The notes: a model not told the origin generated them from the sequence alone. A DNA stretch of 32,000 nt from Psychrobacter sp. DM4 (GCF_051307035.1 NZ_CP195536.1:1170001-1202000); one strand, 5' to 3'; positions 7,115-32,000 are shown, numbered from the stretch's first letter. Made by a program: numbers and translations.

Positions 7115-7159
7115 TACTAAGTGCTTATAAATTTTAACTATTTGAGGATCGAACTAAAT

Positions 7160-14700: not shown

Positions 14701-17700
14701 AGCGGTCAGATAGGGCAGTTGGCTTATCGGACTTCACCCAAGCGTTTGGTAACCAGTGAACATACAGGACTGCTAGAAGGCAAGGATCGTTTGGCTATTG
14801 AGCAATCCTTTATTTATGGAGAAAACGCTTGGGACGTTAACTTGCTATCGGCAACACCCACCTTAGAGATGGGTATTGATATTGGTGATTTATCCGCTGT
14901 ATTGCTATGCTCTGTGCCCCCTGCGCAAGCCAACTACTTACAGCGCATTGGTCGTGCTGGTCGTAGTAATGGCAATGCGTTAGCACTCACTATAGCCAAT
15001 GGTAGTAATCATGATAACTACTTTTATGAAGACCCATTAGAGATGATTCAAGGGGATGTTGCTACCCCTGGTATCTTCTTAAATGCAATGGCGGTATTGG
15101 AACGTCAACTCATTGCCTATTGTTTTGATCGGTGGGTCGCAACAGGAGTCAGTGAAGATGCGATCGCTCCAACGATGGGCTCGGTGTTAAACAGTTTGCA
15201 AGGCAAAGGAAAAAATACAAGCAATGGATTGGCCATCCAGAGATTTCCTAATAATCTGCTTAGTTTTATCGACGAGCATCAAGAGCAGATTTATAGTAGA
15301 TTTATTCAGTTGTTTAAAGAGCTGGACGAAGAGGGGCAAGCACACTTAAAGGATTTCATTGGCTTACAATACTCAGGCAATGGGCAGGGAAGAAAATCGC
15401 TATCTGGAGAACAAGCAGAGCATACGCCGCTAAGCTGGCGTATCGTTAATAGGCTAAAAGAGTTATTAGACAGCCGTGAGAGCCATAGAAAGCGCGCTGC
15501 AGATCTGAAGAAGAACTTTGAAGTGCTATCAAAGCAGCCGGCAGACGATGCACGAGATCAGACGCTTGGGGACTTAAAACGAGAACGTGATGCATTGCTA
15601 TCATTAATGGGCAGTATTAATAAACAGCCAACGCTCAGCTTCTTTACAGATGAAGGGTTGTTACCGAACTATGCGTTCCCTGAAGAGGGTGTTACCTTAA
15701 ACTCAGTCATTGTGCGTAAAGTCGACCAAAAAGACAGGACTGGCTCTGATAAGTCTTCTGAGAAAAACAGTTATGAGCAAGTCTCTTTAAAATTCCAGCG
15801 CTCAGCACAAGCTGCGCTCAATGAGTTGGTCCCCGAAAATGTCTTCTATGTATCTGAACATAAGATTAGTATTGAGCAGATCGATCTGCGGTTGTCTGAG
15901 CCTAGTGAATGGCGGATGTGTCCTAGTTGCCACTACACTGAAGATATAACTTTATCGGGTGATAAGCACAGTGCATGTCCGCGTTGTGGTGATCCTTATT
16001 GGGCGGATATCCAGCAAAAGCACAATCTGCTTAAGTTACGCCAAGTTTATGCACGTGCTAACTCTCGCTATGACCGTATTAGTGATGACAGTGATCAGAG
16101 AGAGCCTAAGTTCTTTCAGCGTCAGTTATTGATTGATATTGATCCCATAAACTGTCGCAATGCCATGCGTATTGATAACCCTGAGCTACCTTTTGGTTTT
16201 GAATACGTCAGCACAGCTACTTTTAGGGAAGTAAACTTTGGCGAGCAGTTTGGAGAGTTTAATAGCTTCTCTGTCGCTGGTAAGAGCAGCTCAAGAAAAG
16301 GTTTTCAGATATGTAAGTATTGTGGCATGGTGCGTCGTAAAAAGCTTAAGAAAGGGCAGTTTGCTCATGCTTTAGATTGTAGGCTGGCACGTCCTGGTGC
16401 TATTGAGTCTGAAAATGACTGGTTTGAAAGCCTTTATTTATATCGTGAGCTTAAGTCAGAAGCCATCCGCATTTTATTACCTTTAGCTGACGTAGCTGAA
16501 TCAGAACAGGCAAGATTGTCTTTCATTGCTGCTATTAATTTGGGGTTAAAAGAGTATTTCCATGGCGCGGTACAGCATCTTGAAGTTACTGAAATGCGAG
16601 AATCGAGTTTATCTGGTAGCAAACAGTACTTGGTGATTTATGATCGTATCCCTGGCGGTACAGGGTACTTAAAGCAGTTAATGGTATCTCCCACAGCTTT
16701 ATTTACAATGTTGGAAAAAGCGCTGAACCATCTAAGTACTTGTAAGTGTGTGAATGATGAGAATAAAGATGGCTGTTATAGCTGTATTTTGGCTTATCGC
16801 AATAGTCATCATAGACAGGATATCTCACGACAGGCTGCGGTTAAGCTACTGACACAGATTCTGCATAACAAAGATAAGTTAGTGCCTATTGATGCTTTAA
16901 ATGAGGTACCGACCAATCATATCTTAGAGAGTGCTTTGGAAGAGAGGTTTGTTCAGGCGCTGGGCAAGCAGTTTAAAGTGATAAAAGAGCGTATCAATAA
17001 TAAGCCTGGCTATCTTATTGATACGGGATCAAGTATGTGGCAACTAGAGCCACAGGTTGAGTTTGGTAAAGATGATGGGGTGTTAGAAACCCGTGCAGAC
17101 TTCGTGTTGCGTCCGCTCAAAGAAGCAGAACGTACTCAAGATAACGAGCTGATTATTTATACCGATGGTTATGAATATCACAGAGATATTGTGACAGACG
17201 ACTTGCGGAAAAGACTCAGCTTATTACGCTCTGGTCGAAAAGTCTGGGTACTTACTTGGGATGATTTGGACAATGAAAGTACGACCAAAACAGTCAGCCA
17301 GCCACGTCTACTATTAGATTGTACAAAGGAGTCTAGCCCAGGTTGTCGATTATGGAATACGATTGCTCCGAGGCACTCATGGAGAAACTTAAAAGAAATC
17401 CGTGGCTTATTAGAGCAAGGAAATTTTGAATGGCTGAAAGCATGGCTCACAAACTCGAAACAAACATGGCAAGAGCTGACCGAGTCTGCATTATGCTTGT
17501 CTTTCCTACAGCTGGTACCACGTCGACCACAGTTGGATGAGTTTGTTGCGAATCAGATAGAAAACAATACCAATTGGTATGAGGCAGTTGTCGACAGCTT
17601 ACCGAGTGATCCTAGTAACTGGGGCGTTGTTGCAGATAGAGATAACCATTCGAATGCTTGGCATCTGCTCAGTTATATTGAAAAGGATCATATAGAGTCA

Positions 17701-18243
17701 TTAAAGACCGACCAGCCAATGTTACACATTTTTATGAGTATCAATGATGCTGTATTCAATAGTCAGCATTCTAAAGAAGTAAAAGAAACGTGGCGACGAA
17801 TTTGGCAGGCTTATAACGTCTTACAGTTTGCGCCAAGATTTCATCCAGTCACAGAATCAGGTCTGCAAGTTGGCTTATTTACGGATTTACTGGGAATGGG
17901 TACGGAGCATCAAGAATCTATCGGAAGCACTACCGCAAGTTATGATGTAAATAGAAGTGCTTTAGATAAAGAGTGGGTTGATATTCGTGAGCTCAGCGAA
18001 TTAACGAATGATGAGATTATGTCTTTACAAAACCTTATAACAGTAGCGCCTGAAGTGGGAATTGACTTAACGAATGAAGAGGGTGCCACAATAGGTACCG
18101 CTGAATTAGCATGGTTTGATCGTAATATTGCTGTATTTATTGAACCAGTTGATGAGTTGCCAGAGTTAAAAAATTGGTTACTTATTTCATTAGAGTCTGA
18201 CAACTGGTTAGAGCAGTTAGAAACGGCGCTAGGCGCTAATTAA
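11761..18243 (+). CDS. 2160-aa DExH-box SF2 helicase fused to DUF1998/MrfA-type Zn-ribbon region and a C-terminal DUF559/Vsr-like fold; DrmA+DrmB-like (alternatively DruE-like)
   Basis: Motif I GSGKT (12085-12099), motif II DELH (12460-12471), motif III TSAT and motif [11 protein letters not shown]. RecA2-type motifs appear only after a roughly 700-aa insertion carrying CxxC pairs. The DUF1998-like part shows CPSCHY...[21 protein letters not shown] and CKC...DGCYSC. AAGGA SD lies 8 nt upstream of the ATG. Confidence 0.85.
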
Positions 18244-18253
18244 GGAGTAGAGT

Positions 18254-20440
18254 ATGGCTAAGGTACAGCCCAAAGTAGCGTTAGGGGACGGCTTTCTTCA
18301 GGCTTTTGCGAGCATTCCTCGTAAAAAGCAAAAAGCAGTAATGAACTTTGTCAGTAAGTTTCGTGCTGATCCTCGAGCATCAGGCATTAATTATGAATTG
18401 ATACGAAATGCTCGAGATCCCAACTTTCGATCTGTACGTATTGATAGAGACTATCGCGGCATTGTACTTAGCCCAGAGCAGGGAAATGTTTATATCTTAC
18501 TATGGGTAGATAATCATGATAATGCTTATACCTGGGCGGTGCGGCATCGTTGTCAGATTCATCCAAAAACAGGATCTCTACAATTATTTGAGGTGGAGCA
18601 TGAATTAGAGAGTGTTGAGGAAGATGCACAACCCCCTGTTGTAGAAGCTAATGCTCTACAAAACCAGGCTGAAAAGGTGAGTGCAGCTGTTGACGCAGCA
18701 CCATTGTTTGATTTAGAAGACGATGTGTTATTAAGGATAGGTGTCCCGCAGGAGCGCTTAGCACTAGTACATTCTTTGACTAGCGAAGTGGAGCTAGAGA
18801 GAGTAGAGCGCCGATTACCTATTGAAGCATTTGAGGCACTATATCTATTAGCAGCAGGGACGCCCTTAGAGGATATTGTTCAAGAATACTCGGTCTTGAA
18901 GTCCAAAGAGCCTGTAGACACGGAAGATTTTGAGAGAGCATTAGATAACCCAGCGACACAGCGTCGATTCCATGTTCCTGAAGATGAGCAGGAGCTAGGT
19001 CGTATGCTTAATGCACCTTTAGAGCGCTGGAGAGTATTCTTACACCCTTCACAGCGTCAGCTGGTAGAGCGAAACTGGAATGGTCCAGTACGAGTTCTAG
19101 GGGGTGCTGGTACAGGTAAAACGGTTGTTGCTATGCACCGTGCACGCTGGTTAGTTTCTCAACCAGATTGGCCAAAAGATGCTCGTCTGCTGTTTACCAC
19201 ATTTACGAGTAATTTAGCTTTAGATATTGCAGATAATTTACGCAAGATATGCACGCCTGAGCAAGCCCAGCGCATTGAGGTAGTTAATCTTGATGCATGG
19301 GTCAGTCAGTTTGTTAAGCGTAATGGTTATCAATCTACCATTATTTACCCTGGTGGCAGAGATAGACACTATGAAAACTGCTGGAGCAAGGCAATGGCTT
19401 TAGTTCCTGGCGAGCTTGACTATCCTGATAGCTTTTATAAAGAAGAGTGGCAGCGGGTTATTTTGTCTCAGCAAGTGCGTAGTCGTCGAGAGTATTTTAA
19501 TGCTAGTCGTATTGGTCGAGGTGTTGCGCTAAATAGGCGACAGCGAGCAGATATTTGGCCTGTTTTTGAGGAGATGCGAGAGCAGCTGGCGAGAGGTGGG
19601 TTTGTCACTGTAGAAGATGCAATGCACCATGCCCTAGATTTAATGCAAAGTGGTGGTGATAAACGTAGTTATCGTGCTGTCGTCGTAGATGAAGGGCAGG
19701 ACTTTACATCTGAGTCATTAAAACTGTTACGCGCACTGGTTCTAGAGAATCAGAATGATATGTTCATCGTTGGGGATGCGCATCAACGTATCTATCAACG
19801 TAAAACAAGCTTTAGTCAGTGTGGTATTAATATCATAGGGCGTGGTCGTAAGTTGAAAATTAACTATCGTACTACAGAACTAATTCGTCGTTATGCGACT
19901 GCTTTATTAGAAAATGTAGATATCGATGATCTAGATGGTGGTATCGATAGTACAAATGACTACCGCTCATTGGTATTAGGCCAAGAGCCTGTTGTTCAAA
20001 ATTTTACAGATATTGATAGTGAGATACAGTGGTTAGTACAGCAGATTGAAAAGTTAAAAAATGAAGACGTTTCTCTTTCAGAGATATGTTTTGTTGCACG
20101 TACGAATCAATTATGCAAATCGTATGCAAATATTTTACAAAGTCACGGAGTGCCTACTCATACACTTTCTCGCCAAAAGTCAGACGATCGATCTAAAGAA
20201 GGGGTACGTCTAGCTACCATGCATCGTATTAAAGGGTTGGAGTTTAGATGCGTCATGATGGTGGGTATTAATAAGGGGGTAGTGCCATTAAACATTGCAA
20301 TAAATGCATCGGAAGATGTAGTAGAGCAGCGTCTATCAGATGTTAATGAAAGGGCTTTATTTCATGTTGCAGCAACTCGTGCCGTTCGATATTTATATAT
20401 TTCTAGCCATGGTACGCCGAGTGAGTATTTAGGTGGTTGA
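18254..20440 (+). CDS. UvrD/Rep-like SF1 helicase (728 aa) with N-terminal RelE/ParE-like domain
   Basis: Walker A GGAGTGKT, motif II VVVDEGQDF, motif III VGDAHQRIY, motif IV NYRTT, motif V TMHRIKGLEF and motif VI FHVAATRAVRYLYIS. N-terminal residues about 10-95 (FRSVRIDRDYRGIVLSPEQGNVYILLWVDNHDNAY) match the RelE/ParE toxin-fold pattern. AAGGAG SD lies 10 nt after the preceding stop. Confidence 0.85.
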   Translation: MAKVQPKVALGDGFLQAFASIPRKKQKAVMNFVSKFRADPRASGINYELIRNARDPNFRSVRIDRDYRGIVLSPEQGNVYILLWVDNHDNAYTWAVRHRCQIHPKTGSLQLFEVEHELESVEEDAQPPVVEANALQNQAEKVSAAVDAAPLFDLEDDVLLRIGVPQERLALVHSLTSEVELERVERRLPIEAFEALYLLAAGTPLEDIVQEYSVLKSKEPVDTEDFERALDNPATQRRFHVPEDEQELGRMLNAPLERWRVFLHPSQRQLVERNWNGPVRVLGGAGTGKTVVAMHRARWLVSQPDWPKDARLLFTTFTSNLALDIADNLRKICTPEQAQRIEVVNLDAWVSQFVKRNGYQSTIIYPGGRDRHYENCWSKAMALVPGELDYPDSFYKEEWQRVILSQQVRSRREYFNASRIGRGVALNRRQRADIWPVFEEMREQLARGGFVTVEDAMHHALDLMQSGGDKRSYRAVVVDEGQDFTSESLKLLRALVLENQNDMFIVGDAHQRIYQRKTSFSQCGINIIGRGRKLKINYRTTELIRRYATALLENVDIDDLDGGIDSTNDYRSLVLGQEPVVQNFTDIDSEIQWLVQQIEKLKNEDVSLSEICFVARTNQLCKSYANILQSHGVPTHTLSRQKSDDRSKEGVRLATMHRIKGLEFRCVMMVGINKGVVPLNIAINASEDVVEQRLSDVNERALFHVAATRAVRYLYISSHGTPSEYLGG

Positions 20441-20569
20441 AGTCTAAGATAGGTTGTCTTACGGTTAAAACCCAAATATGAATCATGCCACCTGAATCTT
20501 ACTAAAAATAGTAGGAATACGATAAATCGTGTCAGAAAATATTTAATTAGCTTTTTATAAATAATGTAG

Positions 20570-20737
20570 GATAACGTGCGTATCCATAGTGATTTCAACG
20601 AGTCACTCTTTAATGAGGACGGTTCTGCAAAAGATGTTCTTGATAAAGAGTACCACCTATTATATGTTGCCATGACTCGCGCTAAGAAGAAGCTATATGC
20701 CACTAATATCGCTAAAGTAATCGGAATCATACAGTAA
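20570..20737 (+). pseudogene. C-terminal remnant of a second SF1 (UvrD_C-type) helicase
   Basis: A short frame opens after TAG 20567-20569. From GTG 20576 it reads VRIHSDFNESLFNEDGSAKDVLDKEYHLLYVAMTRAKKKLYATNIAKVIGIIQ*. LLYVAMTRAKKKLY is a textbook SF1 motif VI, but no upstream helicase motifs exist in any frame of 20441-20569. Its stop abuts the SD of the next gene. Confidence 0.55.
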
Positions 20738-20747
20738 GGGTAACGAG

Positions 20748-21959
20748 ATGGCGTTTGTTTGCTTAAAAGACAATCAGACTATTTATAGTTTTCATTACGC
20801 CTTAAAGGACTGGATTGCTTTGAAAGAGGATAAGCACTCTTCTTTCAAAATGTCTTGTTGCAACACGCCCGCCATCCTTAAAACAAGTAAGCTTGGCACA
20901 CAGTTCTTTTCTCATAAAGCCAAGCCTACCGATACAGATTGCTCAAGCGGTGGTGAAACGGCTGAGCACATACATATCAAGTACCTGGTCAGTAAAACTC
21001 TGTTCGAATGTGGTTGGAATGTGCAAGTCGAAAAACGTGGTGTATCAAGCAAGGGCGAGGAATGGATAGCGGATATCTATGCCACTAAAGGCAAGGCTAA
21101 GATCGCCATTGAGGTGCAGTGGAGCCCGCAAGCATTTATTGAAACCAAACGTCGTCAACAGGTTTATAAAGACTCAGGTGTTAGAGGCTTATGGCTGCTT
21201 AGAAGTGGCTCAATCAAAGATAGAAATGCCATTACCGGTGATTACTTGTATAAAACCAAGGATGTGCCAGTATTTTCGGTCTACAAAAACAAAAAAGAGC
21301 CTGGTAGCTCCTACAAGGTTTTCAATGTCAATCAGGAAGATACCGAGGAGGGTTTGATTTATGAGCGTTTTGAGCCGATTGCGTTGGATTTAGGGGATTT
21401 CATCTCTATGATGATGTCATCACAGATAAAGTTTTATGCAAAATACAGCCGTAGCACAGAGTTGTTTTTAAAAATCATTAAGCAAAAATGTTGGGCTTGT
21501 AAGAGAAGCATGAATAGCGTGGCCAAGGTTGTTTATAGAAACACCAATTATGGTGTGCCTTACGAGGATCGTCGTTATAGCGGTCATATAACAGATTGTG
21601 ACAGTGACACCATTCAGGTTATCAATAACAACCTTGCTCAGACTTATGGGTTTGCGCCTCTAAAAAGCATGTATAGCAAAACAATGGGCGGCAGCTTCGT
21701 GTCTAACTCATGCCCGCATTGTGGTGTTTTGATGGGTAACTTCTTTACTGAGCGAGCATTCATTGAGGCCCGCTACCATAACCGCGTCATACAAACAGAT
21801 AGTATCAATATTTCTAGAACACCAGTCATCGTAAATGGCAAAGAAATGGAAGTCGACTTTGAGCGCGGTGAGTGGGTACTACTTAACACCTTGCCTAAAC
21901 AAACCCCGATATCATTCAGGCTACCTAAGAATTTTGTAAAACTGACAAAGCCCTGTTAA
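20748..21959 (+). CDS. CoiA-like nuclease-fold protein (403 aa) with C-terminal Zn-ribbon
   Basis: The N-terminal pattern FKMSCCNTPAILKTSKLGTQFFSHKAK resembles the CoiA CxxC...HFAH motif. It is followed by ETAEHIHIKYLV...WIADIYATKGKAKIAIEVQWSPQ...RRQQVY...GVRGLWLL, which is the PD-(D/E)XK-like D...E-x-Q core of the CoiA family. The C-terminal half carries CWAC...CPHC. Confidence 0.65.
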   Translation: MAFVCLKDNQTIYSFHYALKDWIALKEDKHSSFKMSCCNTPAILKTSKLGTQFFSHKAKPTDTDCSSGGETAEHIHIKYLVSKTLFECGWNVQVEKRGVSSKGEEWIADIYATKGKAKIAIEVQWSPQAFIETKRRQQVYKDSGVRGLWLLRSGSIKDRNAITGDYLYKTKDVPVFSVYKNKKEPGSSYKVFNVNQEDTEEGLIYERFEPIALDLGDFISMMMSSQIKFYAKYSRSTELFLKIIKQKCWACKRSMNSVAKVVYRNTNYGVPYEDRRYSGHITDCDSDTIQVINNNLAQTYGFAPLKSMYSKTMGGSFVSNSCPHCGVLMGNFFTERAFIEARYHNRVIQTDSINISRTPVIVNGKEMEVDFERGEWVLLNTLPKQTPISFRLPKNFVKLTKPC

Positions 21960-22218
21960 GCGTTTGCTATTATAGCCTAGCAGGGTTTCTTTGTGCCAAA
22001 TCGTACTAGGCGCATATCACTCTACTCTATGAATACTGATAATGCGATATCCTAAAAAAGGACAGAATAGTCACCTGATGAGTAAGAGGAAATTAAACAT
22101 CACCTTTATAAGTTGTCAGTCACTCGTGATCAATATCGACTCAAAATATCGCATAACCTAGAAAAAAATTACTAGGTAATCTACTATACTTGTCTTAACG
22201 ATAATCACTGATGAGCGA

Positions 22219-23094
22219 GTGAACATGACAGCTATTTTAATTGATGAGGATGAACCTCTTATTGAAACAATAGCCCATGCCTGCGCCATTACCTTTAAAG
22301 GCAATGCCAGCAACGGACTACAACAAGACGCATTTTTCTTCTTAGATCACTGGTATCAAGAGGATTTAGGAGTGATGCCAGCGACCCAAGTTGTTGCTCC
22401 ATTTTGCCTTGCCGTATCGGACGGTGTCGGTAGTTCTAACCAGTCACAGCACTGTTCAAAGGCAGTTGTCAAAGCAATTAGATCACTATGGAATGACGAT
22501 CAAGTAAACGTCCGAAACATGACCTCAGATCGTATCTATCAACAACTGAGCCAAACCAAGCACACCAAAAAACGCTATGGTGCTGCGTCAACTCTCGCAA
22601 TGATCATCGGCGCGCTGAATGATGACGACTCAATCAATATAGACATCACTCATGTAGGTGACAGCCGTGTGTACTTGCTAACAAAAGAATCAAAAGAATG
22701 GCAATGCTTGACTCGTGATCATAATCTGCTTAATGAGCTGGTAGATGAGCAAGCGAAAGATGAAGATCGCCAAGTAGAGTTTACGGAGTACAATCGCACA
22801 GGTATGGCAGGCAGCTTATATAGCATTACTGAATGCTTTGCTTTAGCAGTAGATAGTGATGACCCAAGCAGCGAGCCACCTAAAAGTATAAGGCAAAACA
22901 TCACGGTACAATCAGGCAATAGTCTCATTGTCTGTACTGACGGTGTTCATGACTTAGTGCCAAGTAATGAATGGGCGCGTATCGATAATCAAACGGATTT
23001 ACAGGAGTGGCTACAGTCGCTTAGGAATCAAGTGTATGACTCAGATGGTCATGCTTATGATAATGGCACGGCGATTGTGGTGCGGTTTGATTAA
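22219..23094 (+). CDS. PP2C-family Ser/Thr protein phosphatase (about 290 aa)
   Basis: PP2C signature blocks are present: AVSDGVGS, HVGDSRVYL, VCTDGVHD and DNGTAIVV. The start could be GTG 22219 or ATG 22225. Confidence 0.8.
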   Translation: MNMTAILIDEDEPLIETIAHACAITFKGNASNGLQQDAFFFLDHWYQEDLGVMPATQVVAPFCLAVSDGVGSSNQSQHCSKAVVKAIRSLWNDDQVNVRNMTSDRIYQQLSQTKHTKKRYGAASTLAMIIGALNDDDSINIDITHVGDSRVYLLTKESKEWQCLTRDHNLLNELVDEQAKDEDRQVEFTEYNRTGMAGSLYSITECFALAVDSDDPSSEPPKSIRQNITVQSGNSLIVCTDGVHDLVPSNEWARIDNQTDLQEWLQSLRNQVYDSDGHAYDNGTAIVVRFD

Positions 23095-23161
23095 CCTTTT
23101 TATAAGAGCCTACTTTTAAGATGACAGTTTGATAGATTCTATAACCTATAGAGTAGCTTAT

Positions 23162-24250
23162 ATGTCTACACACCCAATCGCAACCTACAAAAAATCAGCC
23201 CGTTTGTTTGCGCTCTATCAGCGCTTGCCACGTAGTAAAGACAAGGCAATATCACTCACAGAGCTAATGAATGTTTATGGCAATAATCCTAACCATTACG
23301 CAAACGAGCGCAAAAATTTAGAGAACGATCTAACAAGTCTCAATCAAATATTCAATGACGTTTTTCACAGCGATGCTTTAATGCGTCTGCCAGCTTGGGG
23401 ACGGAATATCAGCGGACAGACGGCAAGGTTTTATATTGAGCCAAGCTTTAGTATTGATGTCATTAATGAGCAAACGGTGTTCTTTTGGCAAATGCTTGAT
23501 AAATATACCGCAAACTATTTACCAACGTCTTTCAAGCAAAGTATTAGTGAAAAGCTTGCCCAGTTAGATCGTCAAGATAAGACCAGCTTCAATCAAAGCA
23601 GACTAGGGCAGTGGCAAAATCATCTCATTACCCTGCCAAGTATCGTACAAGCACCAAAGCTTGATAGTGACGTGCTCGCTAGTATCCATCAGGCGTTATT
23701 ACACAACAAGCAGCTTCAAATCAGCTATCAAAACAAATGGCGTAACAGTCCTACAATCAGGGTAATCTATCCTAAAGGACTTATTTTTATCGACAATATG
23801 ATCTATCTTACTGGGTTTAATCCAACGAGTGATCATATCGGTGATAACGTCCTGTTGAAGGCACATCGTAATTTTGCAGTTAATCGTATTGAAGCAGCTG
23901 AAGTAACAGAGCAGTTGGTACCGGACTGGGTAGTGCGCAATGCTTTTACTCTTGAGAATCTACGTAAGCTAGGAAAGTTGGAATTGAATAATGGTTTAAA
24001 AATCGGACTGGTTCTAAAGGTGCAAAAATATGCCTGCCAGCATTTATATGAGCGGCCGTTATCATCTACTCAAACGATTACGGTTATCGATGACACTTGG
24101 AACGAAGTGCGTGCAACAGTTGCCAATACGCAGCGCTTGCAAGACTGGCTGGTTAGTATGTCGCAGTTGGCAGTGGTGATTGAGCCTAACGAGTTAAAAG
24201 CAGTAATTTTAGAGCGCCTAGAAAGTGGAATGAAATTATATACAAAATAG
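23162..24250 (+). CDS. WYL-domain transcriptional regulator with N-terminal wHTH (BrxR/CapW-like architecture)
   Basis: N-terminal HTH-like ARLFALYQRLPRSKDKAISLTELMNVYG. WYL-type block LQISYQNKWRNSPTIRVIYPKGLIFIDNMIYLTGF. Preferred start is ATG 23162; the ORF-track start at 23129 is a non-ATG extension. Confidence 0.7.
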   Translation: MSTHPIATYKKSARLFALYQRLPRSKDKAISLTELMNVYGNNPNHYANERKNLENDLTSLNQIFNDVFHSDALMRLPAWGRNISGQTARFYIEPSFSIDVINEQTVFFWQMLDKYTANYLPTSFKQSISEKLAQLDRQDKTSFNQSRLGQWQNHLITLPSIVQAPKLDSDVLASIHQALLHNKQLQISYQNKWRNSPTIRVIYPKGLIFIDNMIYLTGFNPTSDHIGDNVLLKAHRNFAVNRIEAAEVTEQLVPDWVVRNAFTLENLRKLGKLELNNGLKIGLVLKVQKYACQHLYERPLSSTQTITVIDDTWNEVRATVANTQRLQDWLVSMSQLAVVIEPNELKAVILERLESGMKLYTK

Positions 24251-24317
24251 CTGATCAAGAGTTTTACCAAAATCACTCAAACACAAATACATTTTTTAAT
24301 TTAATCAAGGGGCTAGA

Positions 24318-25343
24318 ATGACCACACCTAACTTATTTAAATTTGCCACCTCTGAATTATCACAAGACGCTTTTATTTGTTGGCTTCTTTCTTGGGCAGA
24401 CCAAGACTATCAGACAGGAAGCGATAAGCATAGAGCGCTAAATAGATTAGCAACCAGTGTGTTGGCGTTATTCTTCAAAAAAGCGGGTAAATCGCTACCA
24501 AGTCGTATTGATAAAGTAGTAGTAAAACGTCAGGTGAGTAATATTGATGTTCTTTGTATTGTTAATGACACTTACTGTGTATTAATCGAAGATAAAGTAG
24601 GTAGTTTGCAGCATTCCGATCAGTTGGTTCGATACAAGCAGTTTATGCTTAATGGACACGCTCAAACCTTTACAGAAGATAAAATCATTCCTATTTATTT
24701 GCAAACGCATGATCAAAGCAACTACAAAGCTGTGTTAAAGGACGGTTTTTATCCAGTAACTAGACAAGATTTATTAGACCTCTTTAATAGTGAACAAAAT
24801 GCGGCACTGCAAGAGAGTGATATATATAGCGATTATCATAACCATCTGCAGTCTATTGAAGAAGCGGTGCAAAGCTTTAAGTCAAAGCCTGTCAACGAAT
24901 GGAAAAAACGCGCTTGGATTGGCTTTTTTCAATATTTACAGTCTTACTTAGGAGAAGGCAATTGGGGTTATGTTGCTAATCCTTCGGGCGGCTTTATGGG
25001 CTTTTGGGGTTTGGGTCATAGAGTAGAAAATAATATAGATATTTACTTGCAAATCGAGCAAGAGAAAATTTGCTTTAAAATGTCTGTTCCTGCTAAGGAA
25101 GGACGAAGTAAGATTAGGAATGAGTTTTATAAACTATTTAAGATAGAAGCTTCTGATTTTGATTTAAAAGTGACTAAGCCAAAGCGCTTTGGTTCAGGTA
25201 GGCATATGACCTTTGCTGTATTAGACACAGATATATTTGATGGTAAAAGTTCAATAGATCTGCAACAGGTAGATAGGCTAATGAATGAAGTGCAAAAATT
25301 CATTAACCATGCCGTAAATCAGTATAAAAATAAAAACGAGTGA
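24318..25343 (+). CDS. PD-(D/E)XK nuclease-family protein (PDDEXK_4-like, 341 aa)
   Basis: N-terminal NLFKFATSELSQDAFICWLLSWAD and core NIDVLCIVNDTYCVLIEDKVGSLQHSDQLVRY give the D...E-x-K arrangement typical of this family. AAGGGG SD lies upstream. Confidence 0.6.
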   Translation: MTTPNLFKFATSELSQDAFICWLLSWADQDYQTGSDKHRALNRLATSVLALFFKKAGKSLPSRIDKVVVKRQVSNIDVLCIVNDTYCVLIEDKVGSLQHSDQLVRYKQFMLNGHAQTFTEDKIIPIYLQTHDQSNYKAVLKDGFYPVTRQDLLDLFNSEQNAALQESDIYSDYHNHLQSIEEAVQSFKSKPVNEWKKRAWIGFFQYLQSYLGEGNWGYVANPSGGFMGFWGLGHRVENNIDIYLQIEQEKICFKMSVPAKEGRSKIRNEFYKLFKIEASDFDLKVTKPKRFGSGRHMTFAVLDTDIFDGKSSIDLQQVDRLMNEVQKFINHAVNQYKNKNE

Positions 25344-25383
25344 TAGTCGCAGTGTCATAATATTTAAAGTAATAAAGGGTCTA

Positions 25384-26028
25384 ATGATGAAATATCAGCT
25401 CGATAAATCGAAAGTAGATGACATTCCATGTATCGCTTTATATCGACCAAATAAAGGCCATTATTCGCCATCTGTTATCGCATGTTTTATCCTCAGTGAT
25501 GGTTGGAATGAGCTGGCATTGCTAAAGCTAAAAGAGAAAGCAGAGGCTGATATTTTAGTAGGCTTACAAACAGATGATCATGAGTATGAACGCTTAGATA
25601 TCATAGAAGGGGTTATTAGATGTCAGCTAGATGAAGTAAACGATGTCATTAGACTGCTTGATGTTAATTCAGCCAGTACGCTTATCGGTATAGACGTTAT
25701 AGATATCGAAAGCTTGTTCAAGCGTGGTTATTCATTTCAGTTTGTCCAAGCAATTGCCACAGGTGAGCCTGAATCAGATATGATAAAAACAGCTACATAT
25801 AAGATGATTGGTCTACTTACCAACGCTCGTAATACTAAAGGGGTGCTTATTGGGACGCAGAGCGTGCAAAGTCTTCCACTGGAAGCCTTTGCTTATATAT
25901 CAGATGCTATTGAGGAGTTGTTGTCTAATGATAATGCATTTACTTATCTCAGCTCAAGTATGACTGAAGAGCCTGACTGTTTTCGTTTAAAGGCGGTTTA
26001 TGCTGAAGAAAAACAAAGCCACACGTAA
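25384..26028 (+). CDS. Hypothetical protein (214 aa) with a FtsZ/tubulin C-terminal-domain-like region
   Basis: Residues about 97-200 (LIGIDVIDIESLFKRGYSF...ATGE...KGVLIGTQSVQSLPLEAFAYISDAIEELLSNDNA) follow, by eye, the FtsZ T7-loop and C-terminal-domain pattern. No GGGTGTG nucleotide-binding N-domain is present. AAAGGG SD lies upstream. Confidence 0.5.
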   Translation: MMKYQLDKSKVDDIPCIALYRPNKGHYSPSVIACFILSDGWNELALLKLKEKAEADILVGLQTDDHEYERLDIIEGVIRCQLDEVNDVIRLLDVNSASTLIGIDVIDIESLFKRGYSFQFVQAIATGEPESDMIKTATYKMIGLLTNARNTKGVLIGTQSVQSLPLEAFAYISDAIEELLSNDNAFTYLSSSMTEEPDCFRLKAVYAEEKQSHT

Positions 26029-26070: not shown

Positions 26071-26391
26071 CTATTTGCTAATAGAGTCTCCGCGCCACAT
26101 AGCATGCTCACATACTGCACAAAACCAACTCTCTTTTGCCCGCATATAAGCAATATCGGCAGGTACTTCAATAGGACAGGCGTTTCCGCAATATTCACAA
26201 CACACATCATCTAAGCAAGCGTAGCATTGGCTTACGGTTTCAAATAATGTATGGGTACTAATGCTATACTTTTGACAAAGTAAACTAACATAATCCACAT
26301 AGCTGATTTTATGATCATAGGCCCAATAATCCTCACAGACCCGTTTGTCCCAAGCGTTTTGTGTCATGCTCCATTCAATGCTGATGCCCAC
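26071..26391 (-). CDS. Cys-rich hypothetical protein (106 aa), likely Zn-binding
   Basis: This is the only minus-strand gene in the window. Its GTG start is preceded by a strong SD on the minus strand (AAGGAG, 6-nt spacer). Cys clusters: CYACLDDVCCEYCGNAC and CAVCEH. Confidence 0.6.
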   Translation of the reverse strand: MGISIEWSMTQNAWDKRVCEDYWAYDHKISYVDYVSLLCQKYSISTHTLFETVSQCYACLDDVCCEYCGNACPIEVPADIAYMRAKESWFCAVCEHAMWRGDSISK

Positions 26392-26604
26392 AACGTACTC
26401 CTTTTTAATGACCGATACCTATGATTAGCGTTACCTTTTTATAATAATGATATCTATCGAACCAGTCGCACCTATCATCATTAGTGAGCTATTGAGCAGC
26501 AAGATAGGTATATGACATAATAAAGCGTTAGTCAGCATAAAATAGTTTTTGACGGAAACTTAGTTATTGCCAACGAGTATTATTCTAGCAGAAAAGTAGT
26601 CACT

Positions 26605-26625
26605 GGCAAGTATTTTTTACTTACC
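26605..26625 (+). promoter_or_regulatory. Candidate operator upstream of the XRE HTH gene
   Basis: Imperfect inverted repeat GGCAAGTA-TTTTT-TACTTACC (7 of 8 bp) ends 4 nt before the AAGGA SD (26629-26633) of the HTH gene. Confidence 0.3.
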
Positions 26626-26640
26626 AATAAGGATTTTATT

Positions 26641-26853
26641 GTGATTTTTTGTAATCTCCCTGTGCTTTTAGCAGAAAGACGACTTCGAGTTGCTGATTTA
26701 GTAAGGATGACGGATATTAGTAAATCAACACTTCATAGGATTTATAACGATGAGACGACTCGTATAGAGTTCGACACCTTGAATAAGCTATGTCAGGTAT
26801 TAGAAGTCACCCCAGGGGATATTTTGAAGTATATTCCTGATGAGAATGAATAA
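26641..26853 (+). CDS. Small XRE/Cro-C1-type helix-turn-helix transcriptional regulator (70 aa)
   Basis: GTG start has an AAGGA SD 7 nt upstream. Sequence LLAERRLRVADLVRMTDISKSTLHRIYNDETTRIEFDTLNKLCQVLEVTPGDILKY matches the short HTH_26/XRE regulator pattern. Confidence 0.75.
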   Translation: MIFCNLPVLLAERRLRVADLVRMTDISKSTLHRIYNDETTRIEFDTLNKLCQVLEVTPGDILKYIPDENE

Positions 26854-26923
26854 GACTAAGCTTGATAGGAAGGTCGACTGAAATAATACGTTAACTTCCT
26901 CACCTAACTAAAATTGAAATTTT

Positions 26924-26972
26924 AAAATACTCTTTAGCCTTTATTGCTTATAGGTTAAAGAGTATTTTTTTT
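26924..26972 (+). terminator. Strong rho-independent terminator
   Basis: AAAATACTCTTTAGCC (26924-26939) pairs with GGTTAAAGAGTATTTT (26953-26968), 15 of 16 bp, with a 13-nt loop. It runs into a T8 tract ending at 26972. Confidence 0.7.
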
Positions 26973-27104
26973 GCTTAAAAAATTGATTACAGATCAATAT
27001 TTAAGTTATCTAAAGATAAAAATATAACAGCAATATTAAAGGCTTTACAATCGATAAGTTATAACATATCATAATTAGTATGATTCACTATTAACTATAT
27101 CAAA

Positions 27105-27674
27105 ATGAATATTATTCATCTAAAGCCTGCTCAGAAGTTTATAACTTTCAGTAAATATAATTTGGTTGTTCATCAAGATGCGCAAAAGCCATTGTTGATA
27201 TGGCATCAATTTAGGCCAAGAATAGCTAGTATAAATATGGCTAGCTTGAATGATTATTATCGACCACCACTACGTTTGGTAAATGATAAAAACGAGACTT
27301 ATTATTTTTTTAATGAGTTTAGAAGGTTTGATGAAATTCTAATAGAAGAGATGAGTTTACGTCAGCCTTGCTTAGTTGCCGCTGAAAGCCTGAGAGATAT
27401 TAAGTGCTTAGCTTGGAGTGAGGTTGTCCGGCTGGCCTTCTCAAGGGGAATTAATCATCCTGAATTTCTAAAGGCTTTAAGCTCTAGTGCACCAAAAAGC
27501 ATTATTTGCGAACTCATGAATATTGATCGCCTGACGGTAGACAATTATTGTAGGTTTGCTGGTATCAGCCAAAGTGCTTATGAGTATCAGCAGGGCAAAG
27601 CGGCTAATGATGAGATGATGCTAGGTCTGCCCAAAAGTCTGAATTGGATGGACGCCTCTTATGGGTCACACTAA
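27105..27674 (+). CDS. Hypothetical protein (189 aa), first gene of the recombinase operon
   Basis: Its 3' end overlaps the next ORF's start by 14 nt (ATG 27661, TAA 27672-27674). There is no clear SD, so the start is uncertain. Possible HTH-like stretch LTVDNYCRFAGISQSAYEYQQGK. Confidence 0.45.
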   Translation: MNIIHLKPAQKFITFSKYNLVVHQDAQKPLLIWHQFRPRIASINMASLNDYYRPPLRLVNDKNETYYFFNEFRRFDEILIEEMSLRQPCLVAAESLRDIKCLAWSEVVRLAFSRGINHPEFLKALSSSAPKSIICELMNIDRLTVDNYCRFAGISQSAYEYQQGKAANDEMMLGLPKSLNWMDASYGSH

Positions 27675-29973
27675 ATTATTTAATGATGTGATCGACAGGC
27701 AAGTGTTGAACAAGCTTATCCCAATAGGTTCACCACATCACATACAAATGCGTCAGCTCGTGATGGATGTAATCAGTCTGTTGCCAGATGATGATATTGA
27801 TTTACTACCCTCAACACTAGAGTCTAATATTGCAGACTTTACTGGCATAGACTGCACTGAGGTAATGACGCAAATCATTCGGGAAGGTAAAACTGGAGAG
27901 TGGGCGGTCAGCTATATGCTCATTGTCTTTTATCAGGAGTATGGTGCGATAGACGTTAAGAGTAATGCTTGGCGGTTTATGAGCGGCTACTTAAAAGTGA
28001 TATTTATGATCACAGCACGCCATGATAAACACTTTGCTAAAATAGATAAGCTTGGTGTGCGTGTTCGTATGGCCCTAAGACCTTCTGATCCACAACGTGG
28101 CATTCTCGACCAGTTAATTAGCATTCACGATCAGTGCGATAGCTTGTCCTCATGCTTATCTTATATCAGACAATATGAAGCGAGCGTTAAACAGAAAGAG
28201 GCAACAGGTAAAACAGCGAACCAATATCTTGGTAGTAAAATCGGTCAAATCAGGCTGGCTTATGAGGTAGCAATTAATAATAAAACCTTTATTGGCAAAA
28301 CTTATACTGGGAGCACCAAACGCGTAAAGTCGGCTCAAACCGTCATCAAGACAGTGGTGAGTACTGACAATGAGCCACTACAAAGTATTGTGTTTGGTAC
28401 GAAACAATCAAACAAGCAAAGTAACGTGGCAATCGCTGAAAATATTGCTGATGACGACGAAGTACCTTTGCTAGACAATGACTTTAAGCCAGCCACACAA
28501 ATTGCTAAATCTTCTGAGCTACAGCAGTGGCGATTAAAGAACAACCACCAACACGCCCGCCGTAATCAGTTTCATTTCCCAACCAATCATCGTCAGCTAA
28601 GCATTACCGGATATCAGATGCTATTTGCCACGCTTTGGCAACGCTTTATGAGTGTTGATAAAGAGGGAGGCACTGGGTATGCCGTTTTAATACTATCACT
28701 GTTAAGCGGTCTTAGTATTGATAGCATCATTGCTGATTGGCAATGCAGTCGCAGTCAACGGAAGTATTTCGTCTATGACCGTGTCCGTAAAGTTAGTAGC
28801 ATTGCCATCACGATTGATGTGACGACCAATACTCGAAGTCATCTTCTTGCCCACAGACAAAGTTATGGCAGTACCTTTTATCGTGCAATTCCTGAAGCTT
28901 TACAAGTTATGCTTGAGGATAAAATTACCGTTTCATCCGATACTGTTAAAGACGCTATCTCTTATGCTAAAGATCTGCTTAACCTACCAGCACTGAGTCC
29001 GCAGTATATTGAAGTAGGCCTATTTATCCTCATCAAAAACGAGCTTAATAAGCCCTTATATGCTGACCTGATCACAGGTGTTGATGTACGGCATAGCTCT
29101 TCGCTGTATTACCTTAGCACTAAAACGGTAGAGCTAGAGCAAACTTATCTAAAAGCGGTACAGCTGATAACTGAATATTGCAATGATGAGCAAAAAGCAC
29201 TTTTAATAGATGAGTGTAGCGTACCGATGAACGGGCATAGAAGCCACATTGGTAGTGATATGGCACTAAAGACCACAATGTGCCAGCAGTTCTTTAATCA
29301 ACTGGCTGTCAGTGCCGAGAGCTTTAATGGCAAGCTAAAATCCAACATGGATCGCTATATTACGCAGTTTAATAGCTATAGCATTTGGCTATGGCATATT
29401 GTTATGATCCAAACGGGTATCCGGCCAGTCAAGCACGCACCAGGCTTGCTACACCAGTTTGACTTTAAGCGGCGCATGTTATGGGTATCGGACAAAGAAG
29501 AGCGTCATGCGCAATCTGATGGCAGGCTCATTCCTCTTAGCAAGTTTTTGATAACGGCTATAAAAAACTATATGACTTATATTGAGCAATTTGCCGCTAT
29601 CTATAATCCATTATGTCCAGCAGCGCCTTATCCCATCAATGCCATCTTGCAATCAGAACAACCCCTCATTCAAATTTACCAAAAAAACCCAAAAGGCTTC
29701 GCCAGTATTACGCCAAGCCGAGTCCGTTATCAGTTGCAAGACTTTTTTAGTCATCAGGATAATTGGCTGCGTCATCAGCTGAGATCCATGCTTACAGGGC
29801 GCGTACCTGACTATCTAATTTGCGCGCTTTACGGTCACGAGCATCCTGATCAGGAGTTCATGCACCCGATGTCATCAAGCTCTATCAATCAGCTGCACCA
29901 GCTCAGCCCTCATTTAGATGCGATCGCTACAGATCTTCACTTAAAACAAATTGAGGTTCGTCTATATGGATAA
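27661..29973 (+). CDS. Large tyrosine-recombinase-like protein (770 aa)
   Basis: C-terminal catalytic-domain blocks: IQTGIRPVKH (box I Arg), RLIPLSK, LRHQLRSML (HxxR) and ALYGHEH (His/Trp III). The position expected for the Tyr nucleophile reads EFMHP. Confidence 0.6.
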   Translation: MGHTKLFNDVIDRQVLNKLIPIGSPHHIQMRQLVMDVISLLPDDDIDLLPSTLESNIADFTGIDCTEVMTQIIREGKTGEWAVSYMLIVFYQEYGAIDVKSNAWRFMSGYLKVIFMITARHDKHFAKIDKLGVRVRMALRPSDPQRGILDQLISIHDQCDSLSSCLSYIRQYEASVKQKEATGKTANQYLGSKIGQIRLAYEVAINNKTFIGKTYTGSTKRVKSAQTVIKTVVSTDNEPLQSIVFGTKQSNKQSNVAIAENIADDDEVPLLDNDFKPATQIAKSSELQQWRLKNNHQHARRNQFHFPTNHRQLSITGYQMLFATLWQRFMSVDKEGGTGYAVLILSLLSGLSIDSIIADWQCSRSQRKYFVYDRVRKVSSIAITIDVTTNTRSHLLAHRQSYGSTFYRAIPEALQVMLEDKITVSSDTVKDAISYAKDLLNLPALSPQYIEVGLFILIKNELNKPLYADLITGVDVRHSSSLYYLSTKTVELEQTYLKAVQLITEYCNDEQKALLIDECSVPMNGHRSHIGSDMALKTTMCQQFFNQLAVSAESFNGKLKSNMDRYITQFNSYSIWLWHIVMIQTGIRPVKHAPGLLHQFDFKRRMLWVSDKEERHAQSDGRLIPLSKFLITAIKNYMTYIEQFAAIYNPLCPAAPYPINAILQSEQPLIQIYQKNPKGFASITPSRVRYQLQDFFSHQDNWLRHQLRSMLTGRVPDYLICALYGHEHPDQEFMHPMSSSSINQLHQLSPHLDAIATDLHLKQIEVRLYG

Positions 29974-32000
29974 TATAAGTGCTCATAAACTGCGACAGCT
30001 TAATAGAGAAGAATCCAAAAAAAGTGTTAAGCATGACGCTAAAAAATTAATCGAAGAATATATCAATCAAAATTCTATGCAGCCGCCTTGTGAGCTGCAG
30101 TATCATTATTCAGCAATTAACCAGTTGCTAGAAGGGACGTTCGACACCGCTCAAAACTTCCAATTGGCTCGGCGTGGGTTTTTAGAGTTTGTTCGTGATT
30201 ATAATAAAACGCATCAGATATATCTTAATGAGCCTGTGGTACCGATACTGGCAACTCGTGAGCGCTTGACCATTAACTATGATTGGTTTGTGAATGGACG
30301 TGCTGTGGCAGACAGTAGTACGACAATGATAGAGGTTTGGCAACGAAAACGGCGTTTCTCAGTAAACGACTTGGTTGAAGGGGTGTTGTATTGCAGCATC
30401 ATGTATGGTGGTATTAATGACATTGAGGTACTAAGAGCGTTATACGATTGGCTGTTTGGTGAGCGTCAGATGTATCAGATTGACATGCCAGCGACTGATG
30501 AAAAAAGTAGGGCAGAGTCAGTGGCTGTGATACCGCTTAGAGTGCGTGATGATAATTATGGCTGCGCGGCTGATGACAGTGAAAGCTTACACCGTTTTGT
30601 TGATTATATTCCTGATGATATGAGCTTGTGTTTTTTATATGCTCTAAAGGATAAAGAGTTAAACACGGCCAAGATAAAGTCATTTAATACCATAATTAAC
30701 GATATTTCAAAAACGCTTAAGCTCACCAATAAAGATAGTGAGCGCCCGCAGCACTCATTGCTTATCAAATATGCCAACTATCACTGGCGGCAAATAGAAG
30801 GTAGCCTGATTGATGGTGCGCTTACTGTGGTAAAACAAGGTGGTCTCAAAACCACGGGGCTATCGACTGATAAGCTTATCCATTATAACCGAGAGGACAT
30901 TAAGTCAAATCCTGTACCACTAACGTGGTCTGAACTGTTTAATGCCAGCTATCCATCACCAATAAAGTCGAATAGCCAAGGCGGTACCATAAACTACCCT
31001 AGTTTTAGTAAAAATCTGATCAAAGAAGTTCAAGAGGTACTTAAATCAACCAGAAATGACGCTATTTCCACTATCACAATATTAAAAACAGTCGCTAGCC
31101 AGCCCAATGCGAAGCGTTTGCTTAGTTGGGCGTTATCGCTGCTTGATGATCATAGCATTCGGCTTAATACCATCAGTAAATACATCGGCTGCATTGGTCG
31201 CGACTGGCTAATGCTAACAATGGATGAGGAAATTAATCAATGGGAGGGTGATGATTTTGAGGAAATCTATGAGCAAATTATTCAAAGTAAGGTTAAAGAT
31301 GGTCGGAAAAATTCAATCTTAAATAAATCATCTGAATTTAACCGGAGTACTGATGATACAGAAGATGAAGCCAACACACTAGTCGATTCTATTGAACAGA
31401 AAGCAGAGCGAAATACTTCTACGCTAGATCATTTAAAGGATAACCAAAAATTCACTTATGGTCGTCTGCGAGCATTTCATGATTATCAGCGGGCGCGTTT
31501 CGATGCACCTTATGTGTATTTTCCATGGGGCAATAACCGGCAAGTGGTTAAAGCCGAAATGGTGTCACCGCGTGTATACCAAGCAATGCAAAATTATATT
31601 AAAACATCAGAGTTAGAGGTTGAGCAACAGCAGCTATGCCTAATTGTTTTGGCACTTGCTTATCGGACTGGTATGCGTATTAACGAGATCATTGGTATTA
31701 AGGTCGGCGATATTGCAGATATAAGCAGTATCAATGGCTATGTCATTGAGAACCCTAAAATTATCCTCAGACCTAACCATTATCGCAGACTTAAAAGCAG
31801 CAGCGCTAAACGAGTGATACCGATAGATAGCTTGCTGAAAGCAGATGAGCTAAAGCAAGTTATTTCGTATTATCATCAGCAGCGTAGACTAAAAAGAAAG
31901 TATTTATTTTCGCAAGGTTCAGGTGATCAACCACTGCCGCCTGTGTTTTTTAGTAATATGATGAAGATAATTTGGGATCACTTATTAAGCAATCATAGCT
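29966..32000 (+). CDS. Second large tyrosine recombinase/integrase, 3' end outside the window (at least 678 aa)
   Basis: ATG 29966 overlaps the upstream stop (ATGGATAA). I translated the frame by hand to nt 31999 with no stop. Box I-like LALAYRTGMRINEIIGIKVGDI and KRVIPIDS lie near the window end. It is absent from the ORF track only because it is open-ended. Confidence 0.7.
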   Translation, partial: MDNISAHKLRQLNREESKKSVKHDAKKLIEEYINQNSMQPPCELQYHYSAINQLLEGTFDTAQNFQLARRGFLEFVRDYNKTHQIYLNEPVVPILATRERLTINYDWFVNGRAVADSSTTMIEVWQRKRRFSVNDLVEGVLYCSIMYGGINDIEVLRALYDWLFGERQMYQIDMPATDEKSRAESVAVIPLRVRDDNYGCAADDSESLHRFVDYIPDDMSLCFLYALKDKELNTAKIKSFNTIINDISKTLKLTNKDSERPQHSLLIKYANYHWRQIEGSLIDGALTVVKQGGLKTTGLSTDKLIHYNREDIKSNPVPLTWSELFNASYPSPIKSNSQGGTINYPSFSKNLIKEVQEVLKSTRNDAISTITILKTVASQPNAKRLLSWALSLLDDHSIRLNTISKYIGCIGRDWLMLTMDEEINQWEGDDFEEIYEQIIQSKVKDGRKNSILNKSSEFNRSTDDTEDEANTLVDSIEQKAERNTSTLDHLKDNQKFTYGRLRAFHDYQRARFDAPYVYFPWGNNRQVVKAEMVSPRVYQAMQNYIKTSELEVEQQQLCLIVLALAYRTGMRINEIIGIKVGDIADISSINGYVIENPKIILRPNHYRRLKSSSAKRVIPIDSLLKADELKQVISYYHQQRRLKRKYLFSQGSGDQPLPPVFFSNMMKIIWDHLLSNHS

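Follow-up and report, generated by a model that had tools for sequence, protein, structure and literature searches.

The 32,000-nucleotide stretch of Psychrobacter sp. DM4 DNA analyzed here (NZ_CP195536.1:1170001-1202000, hereafter the window, with positions counted from its first nucleotide) holds four co-directional, closely spaced open reading frames (ORFs), referred to as g1 to g4, which encode a PP2C-type Ser/Thr phosphatase, a WYL-domain regulator, a PDDEXK_4 nuclease and a compact protein with a predicted FtsZ fold (Table 1). Across other loci the phosphatase, the regulator and the FtsZ-like protein recur as a conserved association, and the nuclease occupies a variable slot among them. 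A preliminary description of this region, drawn from its sequence, had proposed a possible uncharacterized system of four genes, co-directional, separated by short spacers and mostly preceded by Shine-Dalgarno sequences. That layout is present in all its parts: Shine-Dalgarno-like motifs are clear ahead of g3 (GGGG) and g4 (AGGG) and weaker ahead of g1 and g2. The g1 ORF opens with GTG at 22219 and ends at 23094, and gene callers on identical contigs use the ATG at 22225, giving 289 amino acids (aa); the g2 ORF opens with TTG at 23129 and ends at 24250, and the ATG at 23162, conserved over 71 distinct upstream sequences, gives 362 aa. With these corrected starts the three successive spacers measure 67, 67 and 40 bp.

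Table 1. Features of the four-gene region, in window coordinates.
Feature	Position	Strand	Basis
Imperfect palindrome, candidate operator of the WYL regulator	22153..22180		Uniqueness and conservation
TATACT hexamer, -10-like	22185..22190	+	Near-invariant in alignment
g1, PP2C-type Ser/Thr phosphatase, 289 aa	22225..23094	+	Pfam PP2C_2
g2, WYL + WCX regulator, 362 aa	23162..24250	+	Pfam WYL and WCX
g3, PDDEXK_4 nuclease, 341 aa, variable/optional cargo	24318..25343	+	Pfam PDDEXK_4
g4, compact FtsZ-fold protein (predicted), 214 aa	25384..26028	+	AlphaFold2 model and Foldseek
Hairpin with 13-bp stem over the g4 stop codon	26014..26044		Terminator-like site in scan

The best reading of the region is that of a single operon, which would run from the operator and promoter elements ahead of g1 to the hairpin over the g4 stop codon, the latter likely a terminator common to g4 and a convergent 106-aa gene. 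Neither kinase nor vWA/TerY nor FHA domains were found in any scanned non-shadow ORF of at least 100 aa lying wholly inside the window, in agreement with the earlier remark that the phosphatase has no such partner there. The window contains no tRNA or Rfam family, and nucleotide searches with the region against plasmids and Escherichia coli genomes gave no match.

The phosphatase matches Pfam PP2C_2 (3.8e-11, 43.4 bits against a cut-off of 24) and aligns with Stp1 (2pk0) and with 6ihs. All of the metal-binding blocks ascribed to it from the sequence are borne out by the alignment with Stp1, and QED/QQD, SDGV, TDGxHD and DNxT are invariant among orthologues down to 51% identity; because these aspartate motifs are invariant, the enzyme is probably catalytically intact and active. 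Its score against the NCBIfam Stp1/IreP model (NF033484), 70.1 bits, falls far under the curated cut-off of 230, so g1 was rejected as an Stp1 orthologue, and its sequence places it in a PP2C lineage separate from Stp1/IreP. Membership in the PADLOC family PDC-M21C, on which no literature was found, was also rejected, the match being too weak (E 6.7e-4). In protein searches with g4 and g1, all named matches among the top 120 listed came from Psychrobacter; the taxonomic range was widened by an exhaustive profile search with the g4 family and by a metagenome scan anchored on the PP2C gene.

The product of g2 carries the WYL (1.6e-11, residues 181-259) and WCX (3e-9, residues 294-365) domains of Pfam, both over the cut-off, and matches the PADLOC model 'WYL' at 3.8e-22. 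Its orthologues are 65-80% identical within Psychrobacter and 42% identical in Moraxella-type loci. Compared with solved BrxR, CapW, DriD and PafBC, it gave no sequence or profile match except a weak one to the WYL region of PafBC (E 1.2), and its N-terminal sequence resembles a helix-turn-helix (HTH) by eye only. The WYL and WCX matches give g2 two of the three domains that make up the BrxR/CapW architecture.

BrxR-family regulators bind inverted repeats at promoters, about half of the homologues lie with defense systems, and the BrxR operator is made of 11-bp repeats (PMC9122601). An inverted repeat is also present at the promoter of g2's own operon and is a candidate operator: the palindrome upstream of the PP2C gene reads ATAACCTAGAAA-N4-TTACTAGGTAAT, with 12-nucleotide arms that are 83% complementary and the core ACCTAG-N10-CTAGGT. 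It is unique within the window (0 expected by chance), no other non-coding stretch ahead of the PP2C gene is as well conserved in an alignment of 17 divergent loci, and among the first 66 loci fetched an exact copy lies approximately 65-70 bp before the PP2C start in 25. The TATACT hexamer, about 35 bp before the g1 ATG and nearly invariant in the same alignment, may act as a -10 promoter element; a consensus promoter scan called no full sigma-70 promoter there. We rejected the half-site ATAACCTA (23141-23148, 14 bp before the g2 start) as a second operator, its 8-mer count in the window being not significant (reached by 34 of 100 shuffles); the half-site is kept in 10 of 71 distinct g2 upstream sequences, close relatives only. 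Two regions had been proposed for WYL binding: 21960-22218 gains from the conserved palindrome as a predicted site, and 23095-23161 holds a half-site confined to close relatives.

The product of g4 has no match in Pfam, PADLOC or NCBIfam, and its sequence profile retrieved nothing from the PDB sequences even at E 10. An exhaustive profile search of 1.84 billion representatives yielded 71 related clusters, which makes this a rare family, and no canonical FtsZ. A first AlphaFold model, built from Psychrobacter sequences only, was poor (pLDDT 59), with FtsZ already as its top PDB matches; the deeper alignment with the 71-cluster family gave an AlphaFold2 model with a pLDDT of 87.6 and a pTM of 0.84. 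When this model was compared with the PDB by Foldseek, all of the top 50 matches were FtsZ (best E 1e-10), with TM scores of 0.59-0.65 for most of the best and a root-mean-square deviation of about 5 Å, and phage FtsZ/tubulin came out on top in a viral library. Because all of these alignments span about 220 columns, the model points to a compact FtsZ fold over the whole protein and not to the C-domain alone; of the earlier label 'FtsZ-C-like', the FtsZ part thus stands and the limitation to the C-domain falls away. The GTP-binding signature GGGTG[ST]G occurs in 0 of 35 members of the family, which has almost no GG dipeptide. Judged by its modeled structure, g4 would be a member of the FtsZ superfamily that fails the defining sequence signature of that superfamily. 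In an hhalign alignment of 70.6% probability with E. coli FtsZ, the segment LIGIDVIDI (g4 residues 100-108) falls on the T7 loop LMNVDFADV, with D104 and D107 placed on D209 and D212 of the E. coli protein, and across the g4 family 31 of 35 members have D, N or E at the first of these T7-like acidic positions and 30 of 35 have D or E at the second. Among ten multidomain members of the family, eight have N-terminal LRR arrays and one has FtsK (P0241, P0252-P0254, P0257, P0261, P0264, P0294 and P0291 are LRR or FtsK fusions, as are the genes at L029 2623-3627 and, on the minus strand, L140 1-1560). A Moraxella fusion joins the FtsZ-like part to a C-terminal FtsK/SpoIIIE ATPase and adjoins a second, distant WYL gene whose product is 21% identical to g2.

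The gene neighborhood was surveyed in two sets of loci. A genome scan anchored on g4 gave 45 loci, 44 of them titled Psychrobacter, and 36 had enough upstream flank to be counted: of these, 28 have a complete WYL gene, 4 a remnant and 4 none, and 21 have a full-length PP2C gene, 8 a remnant and 7 none. The odd locus (L010, CAXBKC010000028.1) belongs to a metagenome-assembled genome labeled 'uncultured Oleiphilus sp.'; its contig is the same as a Psychrobacter-type ENA record, and the label is probably a binning error. A metagenome scan anchored on the PP2C gene gave 80 loci, and among the 39 Psychrobacter-type loci with at least 2.5 kb of downstream sequence 37 contain the WYL gene, 27 the FtsZ-like gene and 19 a PDDEXK_4 gene. 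A second clade, with a PP2C about 50% identical, comprises Moraxella osloensis and M. tetraodonis by cluster names, and in its loci the FtsZ-like gene is present in eight of eight.

Between the two genera the PDDEXK_4 proteins are 41-43% identical, similar to the 42% of the WYL proteins, and the gene order differs. In Psychrobacter it runs PP2C, WYL, variable slot, FtsZ-like; in M. osloensis it runs PP2C, FtsZ-like (often as two tandem paralogues), PDDEXK_4 or a 222-aa protein, then WYL, and in Moraxella-type loci with enough flank the gap between the PP2C and FtsZ-like genes is usually a few to about 20 bp. The same families stand together in more than 100 other loci and the clustering is therefore not due to chance; moreover, membership kept under a shuffled order is a classical sign of functional linkage. 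Rather than being absent from one another's company elsewhere, as a random adjacency would imply, the families co-occur beyond the window, even reordered in another genus, and we have good confidence that they make up a single conserved functional module. What is conserved is the association of PP2C, WYL and FtsZ-like genes, not a fixed four-gene unit: the recurrent trio upholds the system proposed in the preliminary description, and the quartet as such gives way, with its nuclease slot variable and its PP2C often degraded.

The nuclease g3 matches Pfam PDDEXK_4 (1.8e-8, 35 bits against a cut-off of 22.3), and its D...E-x-K motif (NIDVL...LIEDK) was assigned by eye in the translation; against the PADLOC family PDC-S26 the best match (2.7e-10) covers residues 60-158 of 341 only. 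In other loci the slot between the WYL gene and g4 holds a g3-type PDDEXK_4 (9 loci), a 415-aa PDDEXK_4 (10 loci), a g4 paralogue with 28-31% identity, sometimes with LRRs (about 20 loci), or a DUF1810 protein (Rv1873-like; PDB 2jek; about 23 loci, for example L001 9456-9905), and it is empty in L023 and L024. The DUF1810 gene usually lies just ahead of the last FtsZ-like gene, and we found no functional literature on this family. As g3 and the 415-aa PDDEXK_4 show no BLAST similarity, they represent two separate recruitments. Two further forms, a 385-aa PDDEXK_4 between the PP2C and WYL genes (L022 5240-6397; PDC-S26 match 2.5e-132) and a 316-aa one upstream of the WYL gene (L055 594-1544), bring those recruited to the module to four. 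Because g3-type nucleases also stand alone elsewhere, within an island of Vibrio and a prophage of Endozoicomonas, the nuclease of the window is best regarded as cargo that can be exchanged. The stretch that resembles distant loci at the nucleotide level begins at about 22152 and ends at about 26004-26017, with the slot as a separate block; the blocks of similarity are 22152-24232, 25372-26009 and 26072-26843.

The module also varies in copy number, integrity and composition. It occurs twice, on different contigs and usually with different slot types, in four Psychrobacter genomes (L011 and L025, L022 and L036, L026 and L048, L019 and L051). The PP2C and/or WYL gene is frameshifted, split or internally deleted beside an intact FtsZ-like gene in L009/L010, L035, L041, L044, L046, L050, L021 and L033, and in the last two the promoter and palindrome survive the deletion, which joins the remnant to the WYL gene. 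Psychrobacter sp. FDAARGOS_221 has a WYL gene (65% identical to g2) convergent with a 23%-identical FtsZ-like gene and without a PP2C; a 289-aa gene beside this WYL gene was ruled out as a PP2C. L055 consists of a WYL gene, a PDDEXK_4 gene and an LRR-FtsZ-like fusion. A plasmid-like variant in M. osloensis has ParA on the minus strand followed by PP2C, FtsZ-like, FtsZ-like paralogue, SIR2 and DUF262 (L065 4597-7958; L140 4977-9654), with SIR2 in place of the nuclease. When plasmids were searched with the Moraxella-type locus and with its PP2C, nothing useful was returned.

The whole window is a Psychrobacter defense island, and the setting claimed for the cluster is supported. Among genome loci that of Psychrobacter sp. 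PP-21 is the closest, and marine metagenomes contain identical contigs. The outer flanks of the module are hypervariable, holding BREX, DruE-like, Wadjet-like, GmrSD, McrBC, type I restriction-modification, CBASS and integrase genes, and in loci L004-L006 a g2-type WYL gene directly follows BREX genes. Within the window, the C-terminal part of a DrmD/DpdE-like helicase enters at the start, and after it come a type IIG restriction-modification enzyme of 1659 aa (PADLOC 1e-282) and a protein of 225 aa without a family (16-6937). Three co-directional genes that overlap or abut come next (7121-11527); their products are a GTPase of the dynamin family (824 aa), a 304-aa protein resembling YjcZ and a 352-aa patatin phospholipase. 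PADLOC lacks models for the GTPase and the YjcZ-like protein and matches the patatin with generic 'Effector' models only, and the trio may be a separate uncharacterized system. The region 11761-21959 encodes a DruE-like helicase of 2160 aa that bears an MrfA Zn-binding domain, a 728-aa UvrD/GajB-like helicase, a 53-aa UvrD_C fragment (20576-20737) and a 403-aa CoiA-nuclease-like protein; as no DruH-type partner was seen there, it is not an obvious complete Druantia system. Nucleotide identity to loci in which BREX replaces the CoiA-like gene begins at about 21900. Since the stop codon of the CoiA-like gene lies 60 bp further on, its 3' end consists of module-flank sequence that is shared, and this point is probably a recombination junction. 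Beyond g4 (26071-32000) lie the convergent 106-aa gene, an XRE regulator (26641-26853) and a three-gene set, with genes of 189 and 770 aa and last a Phage_integrase protein of about 1050 aa, a large tyrosine recombinase; the ORF that runs off the right end of the window is an integrase as judged from the matching locus L007. The block from the 106-aa gene to the integrase follows g4 in 29 fetched loci, and because several kb of restriction genes are inserted before the 106-aa gene in several of these, the gap between g4 and that gene is a second cargo slot.

We regard the module as a WYL-controlled defense-island operon with an undescribed core. Our best reading is that it is accessory, restricted to Moraxellaceae and carried in defense islands and on plasmids, with a core of the PP2C, the WYL-WCX regulator and one or two FtsZ-fold proteins that would have no GTP-binding loops and keep a T7-like loop, and with enzymatic cargo in its slot, here a PDDEXK_4 nuclease and elsewhere another PDDEXK_4 type, SIR2 or DUF1810. 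To the view that it is a WYL-gated conflict or defense module built around a PP2C and an FtsZ mimic we give roughly even odds. LRR and FtsK fusions, swappable effector-like partners, frequent pseudogenes, double copies and hypervariable flanks are hallmarks of conflict systems and argue for it. A WYL dimer on the palindrome ahead of the PP2C gene would set the expression of the operon, and its WYL domain may sense single-stranded DNA (ssDNA) produced by phage attack or DNA damage, as CapW, DriD and PafBC do (PMC11662680, PMC9186387, PMC11804915), and switch the operon on. The FtsZ mimic would then engage an FtsZ/tubulin polymer, either host FtsZ or a phage tubulin, where its T7 face, without a nucleotide pocket, could cap or poison the filament and so arrest division; the nuclease would attack DNA, and the PP2C, acting on the FtsZ mimic or on its target, would provide an off-switch or threshold, with an anti-phage effect as the putative outcome. 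The capping step is a tentative proposal that we consider unlikely in itself. The same low expectation attaches to the wider idea that the FtsZ-fold proteins are division-protein mimics in immunity, either cappers of host FtsZ or phage tubulin (PhuZ/TubZ-type) or decoys for phage FtsZ inhibitors that report infection; as decoys, they would have their recognition widened by the LRR fusions, with the threshold governed by the PP2C and the response carried out by PDDEXK_4 or SIR2.

Several observations weigh against a defense module of this kind. PADLOC, which was to have tested the suspected system, recognizes no known defense system at g1-g4. No HTH or other Pfam model matches residues 1-140 of g2 even at E up to 10, and the alignment that places the T7-like loop, in which residues 94-195 of g4 are set against 199-300 of E. 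coli FtsZ, reached an hhalign probability of only 70.6%, with a hand-entered E. coli sequence. The distribution is narrow, with Psychrobacter and Moraxella only; about 6 of the 39 PP2C-WYL loci have approximately 4-5 kb of downstream sequence without an FtsZ-like gene; one WYL and FtsZ-like pair lies among ordinary chromosomal genes; and the loci in which a broken PP2C or WYL gene accompanies an intact g4 make a poor fit to a strictly interdependent system. Finally, the palindrome overlaps the -35 region of a promoter without a good -35 hexamer, for which reason the regulator could be an activator rather than a repressor.

The foremost alternative, improbable in our estimation, is that the module is a DNA-damage or stress checkpoint of a mobile element and not anti-phage, in which the WYL regulator would sense ssDNA and induce the FtsZ mimic as a division inhibitor, the nuclease would process DNA and the PP2C would reset the response. 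A published WYL regulator, DriD of Caulobacter, senses ssDNA and induces the division inhibitor DidA (PMC9186387, PMC4211646), g4 is FtsZ-like with T7-like residues kept, the palindrome lies where an activator could stand in for the missing -35 element, and the WYL and FtsZ-like pair in an ordinary chromosomal setting would suit a checkpoint. However, the module is accessory, often duplicated or pseudogenized, and sits amid restriction, BREX, CBASS and integrase genes in nearly every locus, and its LRR fusions and SIR2 partners are features typical of immunity rather than of repair.

Less probable still is the absence of any joint function, with a PP2C-WYL pair, a single-gene PDDEXK_4 nuclease and an unrelated FtsZ-like gene brought together at an island recombination hotspot. 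Such independent cassettes would account for the g3-type nucleases found alone in Vibrio and Endozoicomonas, for a slot that varies and may be empty, for the separate blocks of nucleotide similarity and for the match of the PDDEXK_4 protein to a PADLOC single-gene candidate, PDC-S26. The slot, however, is restricted to four families where the outer flanks hold any defense system, and the PP2C, FtsZ-like, PDDEXK_4 and WYL orthologues stand together in Moraxella in another order; this reordered recurrence, combined with the tight spacing of PP2C and FtsZ-like genes there, argues for a shared function rather than a shared insertion site. A role in the maintenance of a mobile element or plasmid, with the FtsZ-like protein in segregation or exclusion and the WYL protein as its DNA-binding partner, after the manner of TubZ/TubR (the tubulin/FtsZ homologues TubZ and PhuZ segregate plasmids and phage DNA), would fit the adjacent ParA on plasmid-like Moraxella contigs and the three-gene recombinase set a few kb from the Psychrobacter module, but is very improbable, since a glycine-poor family with no GTP-binding signature in 35 members makes GTP-driven filament dynamics unlikely, LRR fusions and nuclease or SIR2 partners are out of place in a partition system, and the module frequently decays while the element persists.

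If the defense reading is true, g4 would represent a new branch of the FtsZ/tubulin superfamily, compact and without GTP loops, yet retaining the T7 face; immunity or a damage checkpoint would be linked to division machinery or phage tubulins; and the kinase-less PP2C would gain a concrete candidate partner. Should the mimic interpretation also be true, this would be the first defense module around a GTP-loop-less FtsZ homologue, and a natural one-faced FtsZ would be a tool for probing filament polarity. The module would also be an example of WYL-gated control in Moraxellaceae, a family with clinically relevant Moraxella and Acinetobacter relatives, and if the mechanism is wrong it still is a well-documented conserved gene neighborhood.

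We found no paper linking WYL, PP2C and FtsZ-like genes, and each component has its nearest counterpart in a different known system. Like PDC-S26, g3 is a PDDEXK_4 protein, with a partial and weak match to it, but PDC-S26 is a single-gene candidate and g3 sits in an operon with three other conserved families. The likeness of g2 to BrxR/CapW regulators lies in its WYL and WCX domains, similar length, defense-island location and the conserved inverted repeat at the promoter of its own operon; it differs in matching no HTH model, in being the second gene of its operon and not the first, and in its partners, since the PP2C and FtsZ-like genes beside it are part of no known system. The TerY-P triad combines a PP2C with a Ser/Thr kinase and TerY/vWA. 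Our module shares with it a PP2C in a defense-island setting, but no kinase or vWA gene lies in the window or beside the module in the other loci that were annotated or clustered, which rules out membership of the triad; only L065 departs from this, with a TerD/vWA-TerF gene that lies on the opposite strand and is not a module member. With regard to cell division, a protein with a single polymerization face would be expected to cap FtsZ filaments, the nearest counterparts being FtsZ inhibitors and cappers such as SulA, MciZ and engineered one-faced FtsZ mutants, and SpoIIE, a PP2C that binds FtsZ, is a precedent for a link between the two, yet no FtsZ homologue encoded beside a PP2C and a WYL regulator is among them. 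DriD-DidA is similar in coupling a WYL regulator to a protein plausibly acting on cell division, but DidA, a small membrane protein, acts on the late division proteins of Caulobacter (PMC4211646), and here an FtsZ-fold candidate is found in a mobile accessory module with a PP2C attached. FtsZ/tubulin ('rare'), FtsK and MinD domains have been described as conflict-system effectors (Kaur et al., 2020; PMC7159879); g4 is predicted to share the FtsZ fold of the former, but those belong to other conflict systems. Lastly, the divergent homologues FtsZl1 and FtsZl2 keep the GGGTG(S/T)G signature, and FtsZl1 is without T7 and the C-terminal part (Makarova and Koonin, 2010; PMC2875224), whereas g4, at 214 aa and not found by FtsZ sequence models, is predicted to be the reverse, without the G-box and with a T7-like loop and C-domain kept, and so would represent a different, reciprocal kind of reduction of the FtsZ fold.

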